Virus record (IMG/VR): IMGVR_UViG_2563366920_000001
Strand: one strand, 5' to 3'
From: a virus
Lineage: Duplodnaviria; Heunggongvirae; Uroviricota; Caudoviricetes
DNA: 36,963 nucleotides
In this document: piece by piece, positions 3,517 to 10,963 of the stretch
How the letters are laid out: every line of letters starts with the position of its first letter
Numbering within the stretch: position 1 is the first letter of the stretch
Notes under the pieces: model-generated
What the model was told of the DNA's origin: nothing
Database searches by the model: none
Seen by the model: only the letters and a program-made list of their open reading frames with translations
Program-made: the position numbers and the translations under genes

Positions 3517-4043
3517 TTGCGTAACTCCGATAATTCGTTAAAGCGTTCCATAAACATCCCGTAGGCATGGCCTGGAGCCAGTGGAATCACGTTGAACATC
3601 TCTGTTGCCGGGATACCTTCCAGCACAGGCCAGAAAGAGCCATCATCAAGCCCGAGATCGCGGCGTTCGGTTGCCAGCATAATGAGATCGGCATATTTCA
3701 CTGGCGTGCTCATAACAGGAGGTAACCCGTATTTCTCACGGATTACGGCGTCTATTTTTTCTTCCATCCGTTTATAGTCAGGAAGAAGTCGTTTCAGTTG
3801 TGCGGGGATGTCCTGGCAATATGCTTCTGTTGCATCATGCATTAAAGCTTCAAAAGCAAATTCCTGCGGCACCAGCTGGCTGCAAAGCACCGCATGTTGG
3901 GCGACACTGTAGAAGTGTGAAAGATGTCCTGCAAAGCGACAGATATTTGAAAGGGAAACCGCGATATCGTTAATAACGATGTCGTCTTTATTTATCCTGT
4001 CATAATAAAAATGCTTCCCGGAAAAAGTTTTAATAAATGACAT
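3507..4043 (-). CDS. HD-domain phosphohydrolase-like protein (YfdR-like, 178 aa)
   Basis: ATG at 4043-4041 preceded by GGAGAA. Sequence MSFIKTFSGKHFYYD...NICRFAGHLSHFYSVAQHAVL...LMHDATEAY has HD-motif character and resembles YfdR of prophage CPS-53 as I recall it. Confidence 0.7.
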   Translation of the reverse strand: MSFIKTFSGKHFYYDRINKDDIVINDIAVSLSNICRFAGHLSHFYSVAQHAVLCSQLVPQEFAFEALMHDATEAYCQDIPAQLKRLLPDYKRMEEKIDAVIREKYGLPPVMSTPVKYADLIMLATERRDLGLDDGSFWPVLEGIPATEMFNVIPLAPGHAYGMFMERFNELSELRKCA

Positions 4044-4587: not shown

Positions 4588-5022
4588 ATGTCCGGTAATA
4601 TCTATACGCTGTACAAATCCCACTGTGAAAATGTTGGAAAGTATCGGGGCATTGAAATCAGTGGGGTAGTGTCATCAGTCGAAATAAGCAAAGTTGAATC
4701 AAGGGCAACATTACTTACTCTTTTGGACCTTGTCTTACATGAGCACCGGAAGAAATTCGGCACTCCCTATAATCAGTTGAATGGGAAAAAGGCTCTGGTT
4801 CACCTTATTCTGATGAAGCATCACTGGATGCCAAAACAGATTAATGAGATGAAATTTGATGAACTTCTTCTTTCAATTCAGGATGAACTCACACTTGATA
4901 AAATAAGCGTAACCGCCCAGAAATTTTTAGATTATCGAGACTGGAGATCACAAATTCATCACTTTGATGATTTTGACGAAAATGAATGGGATCCTAATTT
5001 GTCTGCACAATATCTAAAGTAA
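4588..5022 (+). CDS. Hypothetical protein (144 aa), AT-rich accessory gene convergent with the PL operon
   Basis: ATG at 4588 with AAGGAA Shine-Dalgarno. Plausible soluble-protein composition, low GC. Its 3' end overlaps the 3' end of the opposite-strand small gene by 29 bp. Confidence 0.5.
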   Translation: MSGNIYTLYKSHCENVGKYRGIEISGVVSSVEISKVESRATLLTLLDLVLHEHRKKFGTPYNQLNGKKALVHLILMKHHWMPKQINEMKFDELLLSIQDELTLDKISVTAQKFLDYRDWRSQIHHFDDFDENEWDPNLSAQYLK

Positions 5023-5200
5023 CATCCTGTGATAAAACCGTGATTTCCTGATCCAGTTTTTTTAAGGAGTCTATTGTTTCCTGTCGATAAGACAGCACTT
5101 CACGAAGCTGGTTTATAGCTGCCAGCTTCTTTGTCATCCACTCATAAATTTCCTCATCTGTGTAGCCAGGCGCGACGATTTTGGGTTCTGTTTTGTGCAT
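4994..5200 (-). CDS. Small acidic PL-proximal protein (68 aa)
   Basis: ATG at 5200-5198 with GGAG upstream (the ORF track begins at a TTG five codons earlier). First ORF downstream of the predicted PL. Coiled-coil-like C-terminus; no arginine-rich motif, so not an obvious N-type antiterminator. Confidence 0.45.
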   Translation of the reverse strand: MHKTEPKIVAPGYTDEEIYEWMTKKLAAINQLREVLSYRQETIDSLKKLDQEITVLSQDVTLDIVQTN

Positions 5201-5364
5201 TTCACATCTCCTCAAGTTATCAGTTACTTGTTGATGGGGACCAGATTGTTAAAGAGCTAAGCGTCCTGTAGGGCGCTTTTTTGTTGCTAACGAATCATCC
5301 TGGACTTCATATGCCCCAGGCGGCTACTTCGTGGGCGTCCTGCCTGTTCGTTGTTTCGCTTGGG

Positions 5365-5397
5365 TACATTATGTATCTCAAAGGTACATTGTCAAGT
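5365..5397 (-). promoter_or_regulatory. Leftward early promoter PL with overlapping operator-like palindrome
   Basis: On the minus strand: -35 TTGACA (5395-5390), 17-18 bp spacer, -10 CATAAT/ATAATG (5372-5367). TGTAT-N7-GTACA inverted repeat at 5372-5388 resembles the OR palindromes. Confidence 0.45.
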
Positions 5398-5399
5398 AT

Positions 5400-5420
5400 A
5401 AAAAAACCTGCCGAAGCAGG
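5400..5420 (-). terminator. Rho-independent terminator after cI
   Basis: Minus-strand hairpin CCTGC-TTCG-GCAGG (5407-5420) followed by a run of T residues, 14 nt after the cI stop. Confidence 0.55.
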
Positions 5421-5434
5421 TTCATAAACATTGA

Positions 5435-6109
5435 TTAGGCTTTGATTTTGTATCTTCTTGGTTTTCCTGAGAAAATCACTGTACCAATTATAGAGCAATT
5501 ACCGTTGATCTTAATGTAAGGCTCAGGCCAGTTTGGGTTTAACGCTTTGAGATAACGCTGTGTCCCATCTTCTATCAACCTTTTGAAGGTGGTTTCGCCT
5601 GTATCGTGCATCAATGCAATAACGTCGTCACCGTGGCAGGCAGGTACTTCAGGATCGACAAAAATCATGTCTCCCGGGCGGTACTCATCAATCATTGAAT
5701 CACCTATCACCCGCAAGATATAAGTCATTTCCCCACAGGGTACAGGGCAGGGATACGTTTCTGCTGTGCTCAAATCAACCTCAGAATATCCAACTTCTTT
5801 CCATGCTCCGGCCTGTACCCATGATATGACAGGGACTAATGTGATTTGTTTATTAGTGATTGAAACATCAGGTTTTTTTGTGATGTTCGTTGTCTGGTGT
5901 TCTTGATCGAGCCATCCGACAGGCAGGTCGAAACATTTTTCGATGTGTCGTGCCATGCTGTCACCGATATTTTTAGTAGCACCATCTCCCATAAACCTGC
6001 TGGTCTGGGTTGGCTCGCGATCAATCATAGTGGCAAAGGAAGAATTCCCGCCAACACCATCTCTCAGTTTTCTGGCGTTAGACCGCCGGATGTCATGGAT
6101 TGTTTTCAT
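5435..6109 (-). CDS. cI: CI-type repressor (HTH plus S24 LexA-like peptidase domain, 224 aa)
   Basis: N-terminal HTH region and C-terminal autocleavage-domain character (ILRVIGDSMIDEYRPGDMIFVDPEV...GETTFKRL). ATG at 6109 sits 6 nt after the PRM -10, so the mRNA is leaderless as in lambda cI. Confidence 0.85.
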   Translation of the reverse strand: MKTIHDIRRSNARKLRDGVGGNSSFATMIDREPTQTSRFMGDGATKNIGDSMARHIEKCFDLPVGWLDQEHQTTNITKKPDVSITNKQITLVPVISWVQAGAWKEVGYSEVDLSTAETYPCPVPCGEMTYILRVIGDSMIDEYRPGDMIFVDPEVPACHGDDVIALMHDTGETTFKRLIEDGTQRYLKALNPNWPEPYIKINGNCSIIGTVIFSGKPRRYKIKA

Positions 6110-6199
6110 AACGAAATTAAAACCCTTGTACCGTTAAGGTACAAGTATCTTGAAGGTTCATTTCAATCATGTAATATGTACACCGGAGGTACATATTGT
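6110..6199. promoter_or_regulatory. Immunity switch region: PRM, PR and operator palindromes
   Basis: PRM on minus strand: -35 TTGTAC (6144-6139), 17 bp, -10 TTTAAT (6121-6116). PR on plus strand: -35 TTGAAG (6150-6155), 16 bp, -10 TAATAT (6172-6177). Palindromes TTGTACC-GTTAA-GGTACAA (6126-6144) and ATATGTAC-N7-GTACATAT (6174-6196). Confidence 0.5.
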
Positions 6200-6400
6200 A
6201 TGAAAGCGTATTGGGACTCTTTAACCAAAGAACAGCAGGGCGAGTTGGCCGGAAAAGTTGGCTCAACACCTGGCTACTTACGGCTGGTTTTCAATGGCTA
6301 TAAAAAAGCCAGTTTTGTGCTGGCTAAAAAACTTGAGCAATGCACGTCAGGTGCAATTACGAAATCTGACTTAAGACCGGATATCTATCCGAAAGATTAG
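6200..6400 (+). CDS. cro: Cro-like HTH repressor (66 aa)
   Basis: ATG at 6200 with GGAGG 11 nt upstream. HTH stretch QQGELAGKVGSTPGYLRLVFNG. Divergent from cI. The longer ORF-track entry starting at 5897 is a read-through artefact. Confidence 0.7.
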   Translation: MKAYWDSLTKEQQGELAGKVGSTPGYLRLVFNGYKKASFVLAKKLEQCTSGAITKSDLRPDIYPKD

Positions 6401-6431
6401 CAGAACACTTTCAATTTTTAACCACAGAACG

Positions 6432-6995
6432 ATGAGGCTAACCGTGGGTAAGCATCACTGGAAAATAGAAAAACAGCCTGAGTGGTACGTGAAAGCTGTC
6501 AGAAAAACTATCGCGGCGTTGCCGGGTGGTTACGCTGAAGCGGCTGACTGGCTCGATGTAACAGAAAACGCTTTATTCAACCGCCTTCGTGCAGATGGCG
6601 ATCAGATTTTCCCGCTGGGATGGGCAATGGTTTTACAGCGTGCTGGTGGCACTCACTTCATTGCTGATGCTGTGGCGCAGTCTGCAAATGGCGTCTTTGT
6701 GTCTCTTCCTGACGTCGAGGATGTGGACAACGCCGATATCAACCAACGCCTGCTGGAAGTCATTGAACAGATCGGCAGTTATTCAAAACAGATTCGTTCA
6801 GCAATTGAAGACGGTGTAGTGGAACCGCATGAGAAGACAGCAATTAACGATGAGCTGTACCTCTCAATTTCGAAGCTGCAGGAGCATGCAGCACTGGTCT
6901 ACAAAATCTTTTGCGTTTCAGAAAGTAGTGACGCCCGCGAGTGTGCAGCTCCGGGCGCCGTGGCGTGTCGTGACTGTGGAGAAACTAACGCATGA
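6432..6995 (+). CDS. Regulatory protein in the cII position (YdaT/CII-like family suspected, 187 aa)
   Basis: ATG at 6432. C-terminal CxxC pair. Position immediately after cro. Family assignment is from memory of prophage YdaT-like proteins and is uncertain. Confidence 0.45.
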
Positions 6996-7330
6996 ACAGT
7001 TTAACAACACACTACCGTCGCTCGCAACTGATTGCGCTTCCTGTACCGGGTGGAAAAGCGAAGGTGGAGTATTGCTATGCAGTAAATGTACTAGGTGACA
7101 GGGAAATTGTAACCCACAGCTTTGCAGAGTGGGCTGTGGGTGATTTCAACCGGCAGAAGGAGACAGTCCTTTGCGACAAGTTAACCGCTGGTTCAAAGAT
7201 CACTACGGAGTGCCCGTCAGAGTCATTCGTTGGGAGCCGGAAACACAACGGGTTATCTACCTCCGTGAAGGCTATGAGCATGAGTGCTTCAGCCCGCTCG
7301 AACAGTTTCGTTGTAAATTCAGGGAAATAG
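6992..7330 (+). CDS. Hypothetical protein; 3' half of this frame looks non-coding (possible frameshifted or two-ORF locus)
   Basis: ATG at 6992 overlaps the upstream stop. First ~55 codons look protein-like, the rest is Ser/Ala-rich. An alternative frame, 7171-7350, is protein-like and has AGGAG then TTG. Confidence 0.3.
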
Positions 7331-7339
7331 AGGTCGGTC

Positions 7340-8281
7340 ATGAGCACTAAATTAACCGGCTATGTATGGGATGGTTGCGCTGCGTCAGGCATGAAATTAT
7401 CCAGCGTGGCAATTATGGCCCGCCTGGCTGATTTCAGTAATGACGAAGGTGTGTGCTGGCCATCAATTGAAACCATTGCCCGTCAGATTGGCGCGGGGAT
7501 GAGTACCGTCAGGACGGCTATCGCACGGCTGGAAGCAGAAGGCTGGTTAACGCGTAAGGCGCGTCGCCAGGGTAACCGCAATGCGTCGAATGTTTATCAG
7601 CTTAACGTTGCGAAGCTTCAGGCAGCGGCATTTTCTCAACTGTCAGATTCTGACCCGTCAAAATCTGACGCATCAAAATCTGACCCGTCAAAATTTGATG
7701 CGTCGAAATCTGGCAAAAAAGCGGGTTTTCACCCGTCAGAATCTGGCGGGGATCCGTCAGTAAAATCAAAACATGATCCGTCAGATAAAAAACCTTCTCG
7801 TCCGGACGCTTCGCAACCGGACACGCAGACGGATGAACAGGATTTTTTAACTCGCCATCCTGATGCGGTTGTATTCAGCCCTAAAAAGCGCCAGTGGGGA
7901 ACGCAGGATGATTTGACCTGCGCACAGTGGCTCTGGAAAAAAATCATCGCCCTGTACGAGCAAGCCGCCGAATGTGACGGCAAGGTGGTTCGTCCCAAAG
8001 AACCGAACTGGACAGCCTGGGCAAACGAAATTCGCCTGATGTGTGTGCAGGATGGTCGTACTCACAAACAAATCTGCGAGATGTACAGCCGCGTCAGCCG
8101 CGATCCGTTCTGGTGCCGTAACGTGCTCAGCCCGTCGAAGTTGCGGGAAAAATGGGATGAGCTTTCCCTGCGCTTATCACCGTCCGTCAGCACGTACATC
8201 GAAAAACGCGAAGACCCGTACTTCAAATCCAGTTACGACAACGTGGACTACAGCCAGATCCCGGCAGGATTCAGGGGGTGA
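7340..8281 (+). CDS. Replication initiation protein (O-like; N-terminal HTH, iteron-encoded linker, C-terminal domain)
   Basis: ATG at 7340 with GAGG Shine-Dalgarno. N-terminus MSTKLTGYVWDG...VCWPSIETIARQIGAGMSTVRTAIARLEAEGWL is typical of phage replication initiators. The central SDSDPSKSDASKSDPSKFDASKS repeat is coded by the DNA iterons. Confidence 0.7.
   Translation: MSTKLTGYVWDGCAASGMKLSSVAIMARLADFSNDEGVCWPSIETIARQIGAGMSTVRTAIARLEAEGWLTRKARRQGNRNASNVYQLNVAKLQAAAFSQLSDSDPSKSDASKSDPSKFDASKSGKKAGFHPSESGGDPSVKSKHDPSDKKPSRPDASQPDTQTDEQDFLTRHPDAVVFSPKKRQWGTQDDLTCAQWLWKKIIALYEQAAECDGKVVRPKEPNWTAWANEIRLMCVQDGRTHKQICEMYSRVSRDPFWCRNVLSPSKLREKWDELSLRLSPSVSTYIEKREDPYFKSSYDNVDYSQIPAGFRG
7646..7790. 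repeat. Iteron array (putative ori) inside the replication initiator gene
   Basis: At least six tandem copies of a 15-16 bp unit with core CCGTCA(A/G)AAT (for example CTGACCCGTCAAAAT twice, CTGACGCATCAAAAT, GATCCGTCAGTAAAAT), analogous to lambda ori iterons within gene O. Confidence 0.55.
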
Positions 8282-8283
8282 TC

Positions 8284-8772
8284 ATGAGTCTTTTGAATGA
8301 AGTTCAGAAATTCATTGAAGCCCATCCGGGATGTACTTCCGGAGACATTGCGGATGCTTTTGCAGGTTACTCACGGCAGCGCGTTCTGCAGTCAGCAAGC
8401 AAGTTACGTCAGAGTGGGCGTGTGGCTCACCGTTGTGAAGGAGATACACGCAGACATTTCCCGCGCCTGACTGAGAGAGCGCAGGAACCGGAACCACAAC
8501 CAGTTCGAGAAACCAGACCTGTGCGCAATTTCTATGTCGGCACTAACGATCCACGGGTGATTTTGTGCCTGACCCGCCAGGCTGAAGAACTGGAGTCCAT
8601 GGGCTTATACCGTCGTGCTGCAACCGTGTGGATGGCGGCATTCCGTGAAAGCCACTCCCAGCCAGAACGAAACAATTTTCTGGCGCGTCGTGAGCGGTGC
8701 TTACGGAAAAGCAGCAAGCGCGCTGCATCGGGTGAAGAGTGGTATCTGTCAGGGAATTACGTGGGGGCTTAA
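8284..8772 (+). CDS. Putative regulatory or replication-associated protein (wHTH N-terminus, PerC-like C-terminal motif)
   Basis: ATG at 8284 with GGGGG Shine-Dalgarno (a GTG at 8278 is also possible). Motif GLYRRAATVWMAAFRESH...RRERC resembles PerC-family prophage regulators (recollection). Confidence 0.45.
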   Translation: MSLLNEVQKFIEAHPGCTSGDIADAFAGYSRQRVLQSASKLRQSGRVAHRCEGDTRRHFPRLTERAQEPEPQPVRETRPVRNFYVGTNDPRVILCLTRQAEELESMGLYRRAATVWMAAFRESHSQPERNNFLARRERCLRKSSKRAASGEEWYLSGNYVGA

Positions 8773-9425
8773 TGAGTAATAAATATTGCCAGGCGCTGGT
8801 GGAATTGCGGAACAAACCAGCCCATGAACTGAAGGAAGTGGGCGATCAGTGGCGCACGCCGGACAACATTTTCTGGGGAATTAACACCCTGTTTGGCCCG
8901 TTTGTTCTGGATCTGTTTACTGACGGTGATAACGCCAAATGTGCCGCGTATTACACGGCGGAAGATAACGCGCTGGCGCATGACTGGTCAGAACGTCTTG
9001 CGGAGCTTAAAGGTGCTGCCTTTGGTAATCCCCCATACAGCCGCGCCAGTCAGCATGAGGGGCAATACATCACCGGCATGCGTTACATCATGAAACATGC
9101 CAGTGCCATGCGTGATAAGGGCGGGCGCTATGTTTTCCTGATCAAAGCTGCCACCAGCGAAGTGTGGTGGCCGGAAGATGCGGACCATATTGCTTTTATT
9201 CGCGGGCGTATTGGTTTTGAACTGCCTGCCTGGTTTATCCCGAAGGATGAGAAGCAGGTGCCGACAGGCGCTTTCTTCGCTGGTGCTATTGCTGTTTTCG
9301 ACAAGACCTGGAAGGGACCGGCAATCAGCTACATCGGGCGCGATGAACTTGAGGCATGTGGTGAAGCCTTTCTGGTGCAGGTTCGCCAGCAGGCGGAAAA
9401 ACTGGTCAGGGAGATGGCGGCATGA
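8772..9425 (+). CDS. DNA N6-adenine methyltransferase (phage Dam-like family)
   Basis: ATG at 8772 overlapping the upstream stop as TAATG. Catalytic NPPY motif (AAFGNPPYSRA). Small size and layout typical of phage Dam-like methyltransferases. Confidence 0.8.
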   Translation: MSNKYCQALVELRNKPAHELKEVGDQWRTPDNIFWGINTLFGPFVLDLFTDGDNAKCAAYYTAEDNALAHDWSERLAELKGAAFGNPPYSRASQHEGQYITGMRYIMKHASAMRDKGGRYVFLIKAATSEVWWPEDADHIAFIRGRIGFELPAWFIPKDEKQVPTGAFFAGAIAVFDKTWKGPAISYIGRDELEACGEAFLVQVRQQAEKLVREMAA

Positions 9426-9748
9426 CGACGTTAACTCAATGCCAGCAGCAGGTGCTGGATATGCTGATTTCTTACCAGAAAGAGCGTGGCTTTCCGCCAA
9501 CCAATCAGGAGGTGGCAACCATGCTGGGATACCGTTCAGTGAATGCAGCGGTAGAGCATCTTCGTGCACTGGAGAAAAAAGGCGTCATCACGATAAAGCG
9601 TGGCGTGGCCCGGGGGATAACGCTTCATACCGCGGTGAAGGACGACGACAGCGAGGCGGTCGGGATTATCCGCGCACTGCTTGCCGGTGAGGAAAACGCC
9701 AGGCTGCGTGCAGCCCACTGGTTACATGAGAGAGGCCTGAAAGTATGA
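9422..9748 (+). CDS. LexA-like DNA-binding domain protein (108 aa, no peptidase domain)
   Basis: ATG at 9422. N-terminus LTQCQQQVLDMLISYQKERGFPPTNQEVATMLGYRSVNAAVEHLRALEKKGVI resembles the LexA winged-helix DNA-binding domain. Confidence 0.6.
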   Translation: MTTLTQCQQQVLDMLISYQKERGFPPTNQEVATMLGYRSVNAAVEHLRALEKKGVITIKRGVARGITLHTAVKDDDSEAVGIIRALLAGEENARLRAAHWLHERGLKV

Positions 9749-10134
9749 AGCTGATCTTGCCTTTCCCGCCCAGCGTGAACACGTACTGGCGACACCCCAA
9801 CAAAGGGGCGTTTGCTGGTAAGAGTCTGATAAGCGCGGCGGGGCGAAAATTCCAGAGCGCGGCGTGCGCAGCAATAGTTGAGCAGTTACGTCGTCTGCCG
9901 AAACCAACGTCGGCACCTGCTTCAGTGGAGATCGTGTTGTTTCCTCCGGATAACCGGATCCGCGATCTGGACAACTATAACAAGGCGCTGTTTGACGCCC
10001 TGACCCACGCGGGTGTGTGGGAAGACGACAGTCAGGTGAAAAGAATGCTGGTGGAGTGGGGACCGGTTATCCCGGAAGGGAAGGTCGAGATCACTATCAG
10101 TAAGTACGAGAAAACGGCGGGTGCAGCCGCCTGA
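9745..10134 (+). CDS. rusA: Holliday junction resolvase RusA
   Basis: ATG at 9745 overlapping the upstream stop. LILPFPPSVNTYWRH...RDLDNYNKALFDALTHAGVWEDDSQV matches the RusA family with its catalytic aspartates. Confidence 0.85.
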   Translation: MKLILPFPPSVNTYWRHPNKGAFAGKSLISAAGRKFQSAACAAIVEQLRRLPKPTSAPASVEIVLFPPDNRIRDLDNYNKALFDALTHAGVWEDDSQVKRMLVEWGPVIPEGKVEITISKYEKTAGAAA

Positions 10135-10153
10135 TTAAGAGGAGAAACGAAGT

Positions 10154-10963
10154 ATGAATAATCTGATGGTCATTGATGGTATTGAAGTTCGTCGTGATGC
10201 TTATGGGCGTTACAGCCTGAACGATCTGCATCGCGCAGCAGTAGCATCTGGTGCAAATGCCAGAACCAAGGAGCCGGGAAAGTTTCTTTCCAGCCAACAA
10301 ACTGTTGAGCTTGTTCATGAATTGACCAACACCCAGAATTTGGGTGTTGACCCGGTGAGTGTGATTCATGGGGGAAATGAACGGGGAACGTATGTCTGCA
10401 AGGAACTGGTGTATGCCTATGCAATGTGGATCAGCCCGTCATTCCATCTGAAGGTGATCCGTACTTTCGATATGGTAACCAGCGCACCGGAAAAATTATC
10501 CGGACAGGCTGCTGACAAGATGCAGGCTGGCGTGATCCTGCTGGACTTTATGCGCCGGGAGTTAAACCTGTCTAACTCTTCAGTGCTTGGTGCCTGTCAG
10601 AAACTCCAGGAGGCTGTTGGCTTACCGAATCTGGCACCGCGCTATGCCATTGATGCTCCTGCTGACGCGCCTGATGGCTCAAGCCGCCCCACGCTATCAT
10701 TGAGTGCACTGCTGAAGCAGTATGGTATCCGCCTGACAGCTAATCAGGCATATCACCAGATGGCGAAGCTGGGGATCGTTGAACAACGTGAACGATACAG
10801 CCGCACTGCGATTAACAACATCAAAAAATTCTGGTCGCTGACGGCGAAAGGCTGCATGTTCGGCAAGAACATCACCAGTCCCGCAAATCCGCGCGAGACG
10901 CAGCCGCATTTCTTCGAATCCCGATTCCCTGAGCTGTTAAAGTTGCTCGATACCGTTCATTGA
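10154..10963 (+). CDS. KilA-N domain protein / antirepressor-like (269 aa)
   Basis: ATG at 10154 with GAGGAGAAA Shine-Dalgarno. N-terminus VIDGIEVRRDAYGRYSLNDLHRAA is KilA-N-like; the C-terminal half resembles phage antirepressor (KilAC) domains. Confidence 0.7.
   Translation: MNNLMVIDGIEVRRDAYGRYSLNDLHRAAVASGANARTKEPGKFLSSQQTVELVHELTNTQNLGVDPVSVIHGGNERGTYVCKELVYAYAMWISPSFHLKVIRTFDMVTSAPEKLSGQAADKMQAGVILLDFMRRELNLSNSSVLGACQKLQEAVGLPNLAPRYAIDAPADAPDGSSRPTLSLSALLKQYGIRLTANQAYHQMAKLGIVEQRERYSRTAINNIKKFWSLTAKGCMFGKNITSPANPRETQPHFFESRFPELLKLLDTVH

Follow-up and report, generated by a model that had tools for sequence, protein, structure and literature searches.

Where does replication begin in a temperate phage whose replication initiator gene carries a repeat array inside its own coding sequence? 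The question is raised by the IMG/VR virus record IMGVR_UViG_2563366920_000001, a stretch of 36,963 nucleotides (hereafter the window, i.e., the whole stretch that was analysed) representing a temperate, SfII/SfIV-like phage of E. coli/Shigella. The array lies in the gene at 7340..8281 (plus strand), an open reading frame whose 313-residue product matches PHROG 391, "replication initiation O-like", over its full length (E 4e-135). An initial annotation had taken the repeats for origin-like iterons embedded in an O-like initiator gene in the manner of the phage lambda origin (ori), and this interpretation is supported by the sequence comparisons described here. The segment 7642-7822, within the coding region for the disordered linker of the initiator, is probably the replication origin of this phage, and by analogy with the lambda-style architecture it would be a known kind of element, in that dyad repeats are found between the domains, an AT-rich tract adjoins them, and the repeats are inherited together with the N-terminal domain (N-domain) of the protein. 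Two traits are distinctive, namely the 13-bp dyads at a 15-bp period and the DnaT-tailed initiator that comes without a loader.

Anatomy of the array and its flanking DNA

Direct reading and a repeat finder were used to delimit the array, to which no strand is assigned, at 7642..7714. It is made up of five 13-bp near-palindromes with the core TCARAWTCTGA, each followed by a 2-bp spacer, which gives the period of 15 bp. Unit 1 at 7642 (GTCAGATTCTGAC) is a perfect dyad, and is followed by unit 2 at 7657 (GTCAAAATCTGAC), unit 3 at 7672 (ATCAAAATCTGAC), unit 4 at 7687 (GTCAAAATTTGAT) and unit 5 at 7702 (GTCGAAATCTGGC). The isolated unit 6 (7735..7747, GTCAGAATCTGGC) stands 33 bp after unit 5, behind a spacer with A6 and T4 tracts, and adjoins the AT-rich tract. 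The initial annotation had counted six or more tandem repeats; six full units are indeed present, but only five are in tandem, and the further copies, CCGTCAG at 7754 and 7778, are non-tandem, half-site-like sequences within the AT-rich tract, with spacings of 21 and 24 bp. The core it had proposed, CCGTCA(A/G)AAT, designates the same element out of register, since it joins the spacer to the left arm of what is actually the TCARAWTCTGA dyad.

Tandem Repeats Finder reported 7649-7712 with a period of 15, 4.3 copies and 81% matches, and a period of 30 also fits (88%). The heptamer CCGTCAR has 25 matches where 10.2 are expected, and TCARAWTCTGA with at most one mismatch has 10 strand-hits in 37 kb against 2.35 expected; neither count was reached in any of 100 shuffles, so that the repeats, at the place where they had been reported, are not due to chance. 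All of the TCARAWTCTGA hits fall in 7643-7746, which makes the motif unique to this place within the 37 kb. Translated in the frame of the gene, the array yields SD(P/A)SK pentapeptides, which bears out the repetitive Ser/Asp/Lys linker that had been read from it. Plasmid-type iterons are direct repeats of ~17-22 bp, roughly helically phased and bound by Rep monomers. The present units, being palindromic, 13 bp long and set at 15 bp, are not direct, non-palindromic repeats at ~22-bp spacing and so do not belong to that class. The 15-bp packing of dyad sites is unusually dense, and raises the question of how an initiator complex is built on such an array.

The spacer behind the array (7715..7734) contains the A6 tract (7715-7720) and the T4 tract (7726-7729), and is possibly bent DNA. 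Across 76 distinct sequences, its TTTT(C/G)ACCC and the unit 6 motif CAGAATCTGG are each at least 90% conserved. A terminator-like hairpin (CGGGTGAAAACCCG plus a T-run) was considered on the minus strand at 7722-7735, in the gap that separates unit 6 from the array, and was rejected, the stem being absent from the family consensus; its presence is probably a side effect of the A/T tracts. The initial annotation had recommended looking for an AT-rich element just downstream of the repeats, and one was found: a conserved tract at 7748..7800, with 32.5% GC in 7760-7799, is the candidate unwinding element, and the 30-40 bp of lowest stability in the initiator gene lie at 7759-7800, within the top 0.7-1.2% of the 37-kb window. 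This tract holds two GATC sequences (7751, 7775) and two half-site-like GTCAG sequences (7756, 7780), and its GGGGATCCGTCAGTAAAWTCAA...GATCCATCAG is ~90-100% conserved. The best-conserved DNA of the locus reads TTTT(C/G)ACCCGTCAGAATCTGGnGGGGATCCGTCAGTAAAWTCAAAACAnGATCCATCAG.

The right edge of the element is formed by a palindrome at 7801..7822, GTCCGG-acgcttcgca-CCGGAC (GTCCGG-N10-CCGGAC). In most relatives it takes the form GTCnGGTTGC-nnn-GCAACCnGAC, with compensating variants (GGTTGCC/GGCAACC, GGTTGCG/CGCAACC, GGTTGCT/AGCAACC and GGTTCCG/CGGAACC), and a different palindrome, TTCGTC...GACGAA, occupies the same place in phi80 (9775-9800) and in Providencia/Proteus relatives.

As a separate observation, both GATC sites (7751-7754 and 7775-7778) are ~90% or more conserved in the 76 distinct homologous sequences, and in many related phages a Dam methylase gene of the phage follows one or two genes further downstream. 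Taken together, conserved GATC and a phage Dam may point to a methylation-sensitive control of the origin, by analogy with oriC or P1 oriR. GATC is not enriched in the window overall (145 against 142 expected), and only the conservation of the sites in the tract is notable.

Conservation of the DNA and rival explanations

A survey with one genome per species added 80 more loci across the Enterobacterales, with N-domain identities of 52-100%. The array is kept in 79 of 79 intact homologues, as 3-10 contiguous units of which five is the commonest number, and intact homologues also keep the isolated unit, which follows the end of the array at a distance of 33 bp in 49 genomes and of 48 bp in 26. 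Repeats are missing from two loci only, both of them disrupted genes; the absence of repeats from functional homologues, which the initial annotation had named as the finding that would speak against it, was not seen. Among database homologues the length of the linker varies in 5-residue steps from 26 to 61 residues; the array thus expands and contracts freely by whole units of 15 bp, i.e., five amino acids. At the extreme, a Providencia metagenome-assembled genome has ten contiguous 15-bp units (gene nucleotides 312-460), and one E. coli protein has an SD(T)SK linker of 61 residues.

The repeats follow the N-domain. The distant HTH_36 initiators of phi24B (O), SI5, mEp460 and Vibrio phage D75 carry palindromic repeats of their own at the same position of the gene, spaced 21-24 bp apart. 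In mEp460_4F5, a C-terminal half 96% identical to that of the window is joined to another N-domain, with other palindromic repeats (again at 21-24 bp spacing) at the same position. Conversely, Eeyore, YeP2, phiNP and KpnBHU6 combine the window-type N-domain and array with a C-terminal domain (C-domain) of the Phg_2220_C type, and overall the window-type N-domain and array were found with at least three C-domain types. The N-domain and the iterons travel as one module and the C-domain is exchangeable, which is the lambdoid rule.

Whether the DNA or the peptide is conserved was addressed by a codon test, in which identical codons were counted among identical amino acids in seven genes (21 pairs) with N-domains 58-88% identical to that of the window. 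When the 21 pairs were pooled, codon identity was 42% in the N-domain (568/1362) and 82% in the linker (451/550), and the linker exceeded the N-domain in every one of the 21 pairs, including those with only 58-64% N-domain identity. Klebsiella phage 1 LV-2017 has the same domain types as the window throughout; here the identical codons amounted to 33/79 in the N-domain, 44/49 in the linker and 45/91 in the C-domain (Fisher p of 3e-8 for linker versus N-domain and 1e-6 for linker versus C-domain), and the comparison outlines a DNA-conserved block at ~7610-7840 despite a lower amino-acid identity there. A logo of 403 units from 79 genes localizes the constraint: third-codon positions within the palindrome carry 1.15-1.70 bits, whereas the 2-bp spacer, which consists of codon positions 1-2, carries 0.49-0.72 bits. 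The Ser codons are fixed as TCA in 95% and as TCT in 81% of units, and the variable residue (P/A/T/G) is the one encoded by the spacer. Since the conservation tracks the palindrome and not the codon frame, the selected object is the DNA rather than the peptide.

Further comparisons point the same way. In a clade with 58-69% N-domain identity the outer positions of the unit change jointly, from GTCA...TGAC to TTCA...TGAA, a shift in which every unit has, among other things, replaced CCG synonymously by CCT. The T..A outer pair is confined to initiators with an altered wing motif, an association that reflects one or a few evolutionary events and is suggestive only. In KpnBHU6 the peptide is very different (SGRSE/SEPSE), yet the core CAGAATCTG is retained. 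The locus thereby offers a clean example of a cis-acting element that overrides codon-level conservation of the very protein that reads it.

These observations bear on explanations in which the repeats are not an origin. If they were a by-product of a low-complexity Ser/Asp/Lys linker grown by slippage, with functionless DNA, one would understand the in-frame SD(P/A)SK pentapeptides, the variation by whole units and the predicted disorder of the linker, but not why the conservation of synonymous sites is roughly double that of the structured domains, why the Ser codons are fixed and amino-acid changes concentrated at the spacer, or why the units are palindromic, change their outer bases symmetrically in one clade and keep their core in KpnBHU6 when the peptide has diverged; slippage is therefore held to be extremely improbable. 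The similarity of the linkers might instead mark a recombination joint or a recent mosaic exchange, given that the linker is the place of N-/C-domain swaps, or a secondary structure of the mRNA or single-stranded DNA, given that single-stranded 7636-7830 folds far better than shuffled sequences (z = -4.68). A recent exchange would, however, equalize all positions, while the differences are confined to the spacer and the amino-acid identity is below that of the flanks; for this reason, recent exchange was ruled out as the cause. The pattern also holds in all 21 pairs, down to the 58-64% identity class. As for structure, hairpins of single 13-bp units would have 1-nt loops, and the weak Rfam match to a microRNA precursor (mir-5880, the sole result of a scan of 5000-10500) reflects self-complementarity and, with 30.7 bits where the gathering score is 97, was set aside as a chance reflection of the palindromes. 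Taken as a whole, recombination or structure is a very unlikely account.

More thought is required by the proposal that the array consists of cis-acting protein-binding sites with a job other than origin function, such as autoregulation or a roadblock by the initiator, or sites for the PerC-like winged helix-turn-helix protein encoded downstream, CII, Cro or CI. Dyad sites bound by winged helix-turn-helix dimers are typical operators, inverted repeats also serve plasmid Rep proteins in autorepression, and conservation demonstrates selection at the DNA level but does not tell what the DNA is selected for. Nevertheless, it is the initiator N-domain that the array is inherited with, not the genes around it (only ~24 of ~95 array-keeping loci have the PerC-like gene), the cI-cro operators differ in sequence, no further copy of the motif exists elsewhere in the window, and a promoter scan of 6900-8400 revealed no promoter-like site. 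The combination of repeats, AT-rich tract and palindrome in the linker DNA also matches the origins of lambda and phi80 (PMC7466680). A non-origin role is thus regarded as unlikely.

Several points weigh against the origin assignment itself. DnaA boxes were looked for near the element and none was found. The AT-rich tract is modest at 32.5% GC, and is surpassed in instability by several intergenic stretches near cI/cro. A conserved peptide, ESGGDPSV, is specified by the stretch with the strongest conservation, and part of this conservation could therefore be at the protein level. The 15-bp centre-to-centre spacing is much tighter than that of lambda and phi80 (~21-24 bp) and would place neighbouring dimers on nearly opposite faces of the helix, so that full occupancy is uncertain. 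The initiator is outside the lambda O Pfam family, and the lambda analogy is consequently an architectural one. Finally, a literature search retrieved no paper on the origin of these phages, and the "Eru" papers on the replication regions of Shiga toxin (Stx) phages do not mention iterons.

The initiator protein, helicase loading and gene context

The presumed reader of the iterons is the N-terminal winged-helix DNA-binding domain (residues 1-100; 7340..7639, plus strand), which a Pfam scan assigned to HTH_36 (PF13730; E 4e-11, 42.9 bits against a cut-off of 25). In the AlphaFold model this winged helix of residues 1-100 consists of helices and a beta wing, with a predicted local distance difference test (pLDDT) score of 65-88, and in a Foldseek search it resembles dimeric regulators of the MarR/PadR type, which read palindromes. 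The description of the protein as O-like thus stands as regards PHROG 391 and an HTH_36 N-terminus but not as regards family, for Phage_rep_O, the Pfam family of lambda O, gave no match at E <= 0.01 in a scan that lists HTH_36, GntR, HTH_29, PaaX and DnaD_N. Linker residues 103-163 have pLDDT values below 50 and are unstructured in the model, and the iterons sit in the DNA for residues 101-136, which are predicted to be disordered. It is because the disordered segment coincides with the DNA-constrained block that an origin can sit inside the coding sequence, as a disordered linker can tolerate any peptide that the origin sequence dictates. The helical C-domain (residues 169-278; 7844..8173, plus strand) is of the phi80 gp15 type, with 37% identity over 112 residues to the gp15 C-domain in BLASTP (E 1e-25) and PHROG matches to "DnaD-like helicase loader" and "replisome organizer". 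Its placement was made by sequence, using phi80 gp15 and the PHROGs; it is confidently modelled as helical at 185-280 (pLDDT 85-92), and Foldseek against the PDB returned no match to it, only winged helix-turn-helix matches to the N-domain with E of at least 1.8e-3.

Dimers of the winged-helix N-domain would bind the 13-bp dyads, five abutting and one isolated, and, by analogy with lambda, the resulting nucleoprotein complex, aided by rightward early transcription and supercoiling, would then open the AT-rich tract at 7748-7800. The host DnaB may next be recruited by the C-domain and the C-terminal IPxGFRG tail and, since no loader is encoded by the phage, presumably in the form of DnaB-DnaC.

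The gene directly after the initiator (8278-8772, plus strand) encodes a PerC/ANR-like protein in which a MarR-like winged helix (residues ~6-68) is fused to a PerC/ANR-type domain (residues ~96-150). Only roughly one in four related loci has this gene behind the initiator, so it is not an obligatory replication partner. No helicase, loader or primase is annotated in a 99.5% identical phage genome, in agreement with the initial annotation, which had noted that no loader follows, and the initiator gene is the sole replication gene of the phage.

This directs attention to the C-terminal tail, SQIPAGFRG (8252..8278, plus strand), which is identical in 8 of 9 residues to the C-terminus of E. coli DnaT (SQIPPGFRG). 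No homology to DnaT was found beyond these last nine residues, and there was no match to the DnaT Pfam family (PF17948) or to DnaT in the PDB; the nine shared residues account for the "primosomal protein" annotations of related genes. The IP.GFRG end is present in 99 of 107 full-length DnaT homologues and is replaced by IP.GFRGAK in a few; either form is also seen on phage initiators, whose C-domains are of three different types. Among related initiators the tail occurs in ~54 of 86. A DnaC-like, gp14-like or helicase gene lies downstream of 1 of the 54 with the tail and of 9 of the 32 without it (p = 4.5e-4, uncorrected for relatedness). DnaT lacking residues 154-179 has a lower affinity for single-stranded DNA (PMC4132743). 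It is possible, and is put forward only tentatively, that the tail acts as a short, transferable motif through which the helicase-loading machinery of the host is recruited, either DnaB-DnaC or a PriA-type primosome. If true, one gene with its embedded origin would constitute a complete loader-less replicon, the phage would point to the function of the conserved tail of DnaT, and such DnaT-tailed one-gene replicons would provide a genetic handle on DnaB-DnaC recruitment without DnaA or a phage loader.

The initiator is 98-99.5% identical to genes of phages SfIV, SfII, vB_EcoM-689R6 and several E. coli phages, annotated as "replication protein O" or "primosomal protein". Its surroundings are those of a lambdoid early-right operon, with an S24-type repressor (5435-6109, minus strand), a Cro-like open reading frame listed between it and CII, a CII of the CP76 type (6432-6995), a DUF4222 protein (7171-7350) and, after the initiator and the PerC/ANR-like gene, a Dam methylase (8739-9425), a LexA-N-like protein and then RusA. 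Further away, the gene for an HD-domain hydrolase (~3535-4043, minus strand) has 94% DNA identity to its vB_EcoM-689R6 counterpart and is a homologue of the cryptic-prophage gene for YfdR; through it the phage might be connected with the control of host replication. YfdR is described as binding DnaA, and the yfdQ-T cluster as inhibiting chromosomal initiation (PMC4776307).

Natural mini-replicons were also sought in the plasmid collection, where the larger records proved to be prophages in megaplasmids or chromosomes, and none of the records shows autonomous replication. The 15.2-kb "plasmid" OR902851.1 is an excised e14 circle (with mcrA, pin and an icd fragment) carrying a broken homologue of the initiator. 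The 16-kb circular record NZ_CP148542.1 is a fragment of a related prophage that spans its early region and lysis functions and includes a DnaC-like gene; it may represent either a lambda-dv-like plasmid or an artefact of assembly.

The origin assignment would supply precise origin coordinates for widespread temperate phages and prophages of the Enterobacterales, a group that takes in the Shigella serotype-converting phages SfII and SfIV as well as elements related to e14 and CPS-53, two cryptic prophages of K-12.

Comparison with known systems

The closest architectural parallel is the ori of lambda in gene O, together with its variants in the Stx phages P27 and 933W, where the origin likewise lies in the middle of the initiator gene, dyad iterons are followed by an AT-rich tract, and the N-domain reads the iterons while the C-domain handles helicase loading. 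The lambda-like arrangement that the initial annotation had recognized holds in this respect, the repeats lying in the interdomain linker as they do in lambda ori and in gene 15 of phi80. The iterons are found in the interdomain linker of lambda O, and this is a general rule for such origins (PMC7466680, PMC8022706); the six iterons of the Stx phages, compared with four in lambda, add 13 residues to the linker (PMC7466680), a parallel to the 5-residue steps among the homologues considered here. Lambda differs in its 19-bp iterons, which are ~21-24 bp apart compared with the 13-bp units at a 15-bp period in the window, and the phage of the window differs in turn by an N-domain that is of the HTH_36 and not the lambda O family, by the lack of a P-type loader gene and by its DnaT-like tail.

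Gene 15 of phi80 has a homologous C-domain and carries palindromic repeats of its own at the matching position: four annotated gp15 binding sites lie within the gene, and behind them come an AT-rich stretch and then a palindrome. Its N-domain and iterons are, however, unrelated to those of the window, its sites are spaced 21 bp apart, gp14 (P-like) is encoded directly downstream, and gp15 is without the IPxGFRG tail.

In P22 and phage L, repeats in the initiator gene 18 have likewise been inferred to be the origin, and in phage L these consist of six imprecise copies of an 11-bp unit (PMC8022706). Those initiators belong to other families and have other repeats, and these phages have their own DnaB-type helicase, gp12. 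With E. coli DnaT (primosomal protein I), the initiator of the window has the extreme C-terminus alone in common. The role of DnaT is in replication restart, and it does not bind origins sequence-specifically.

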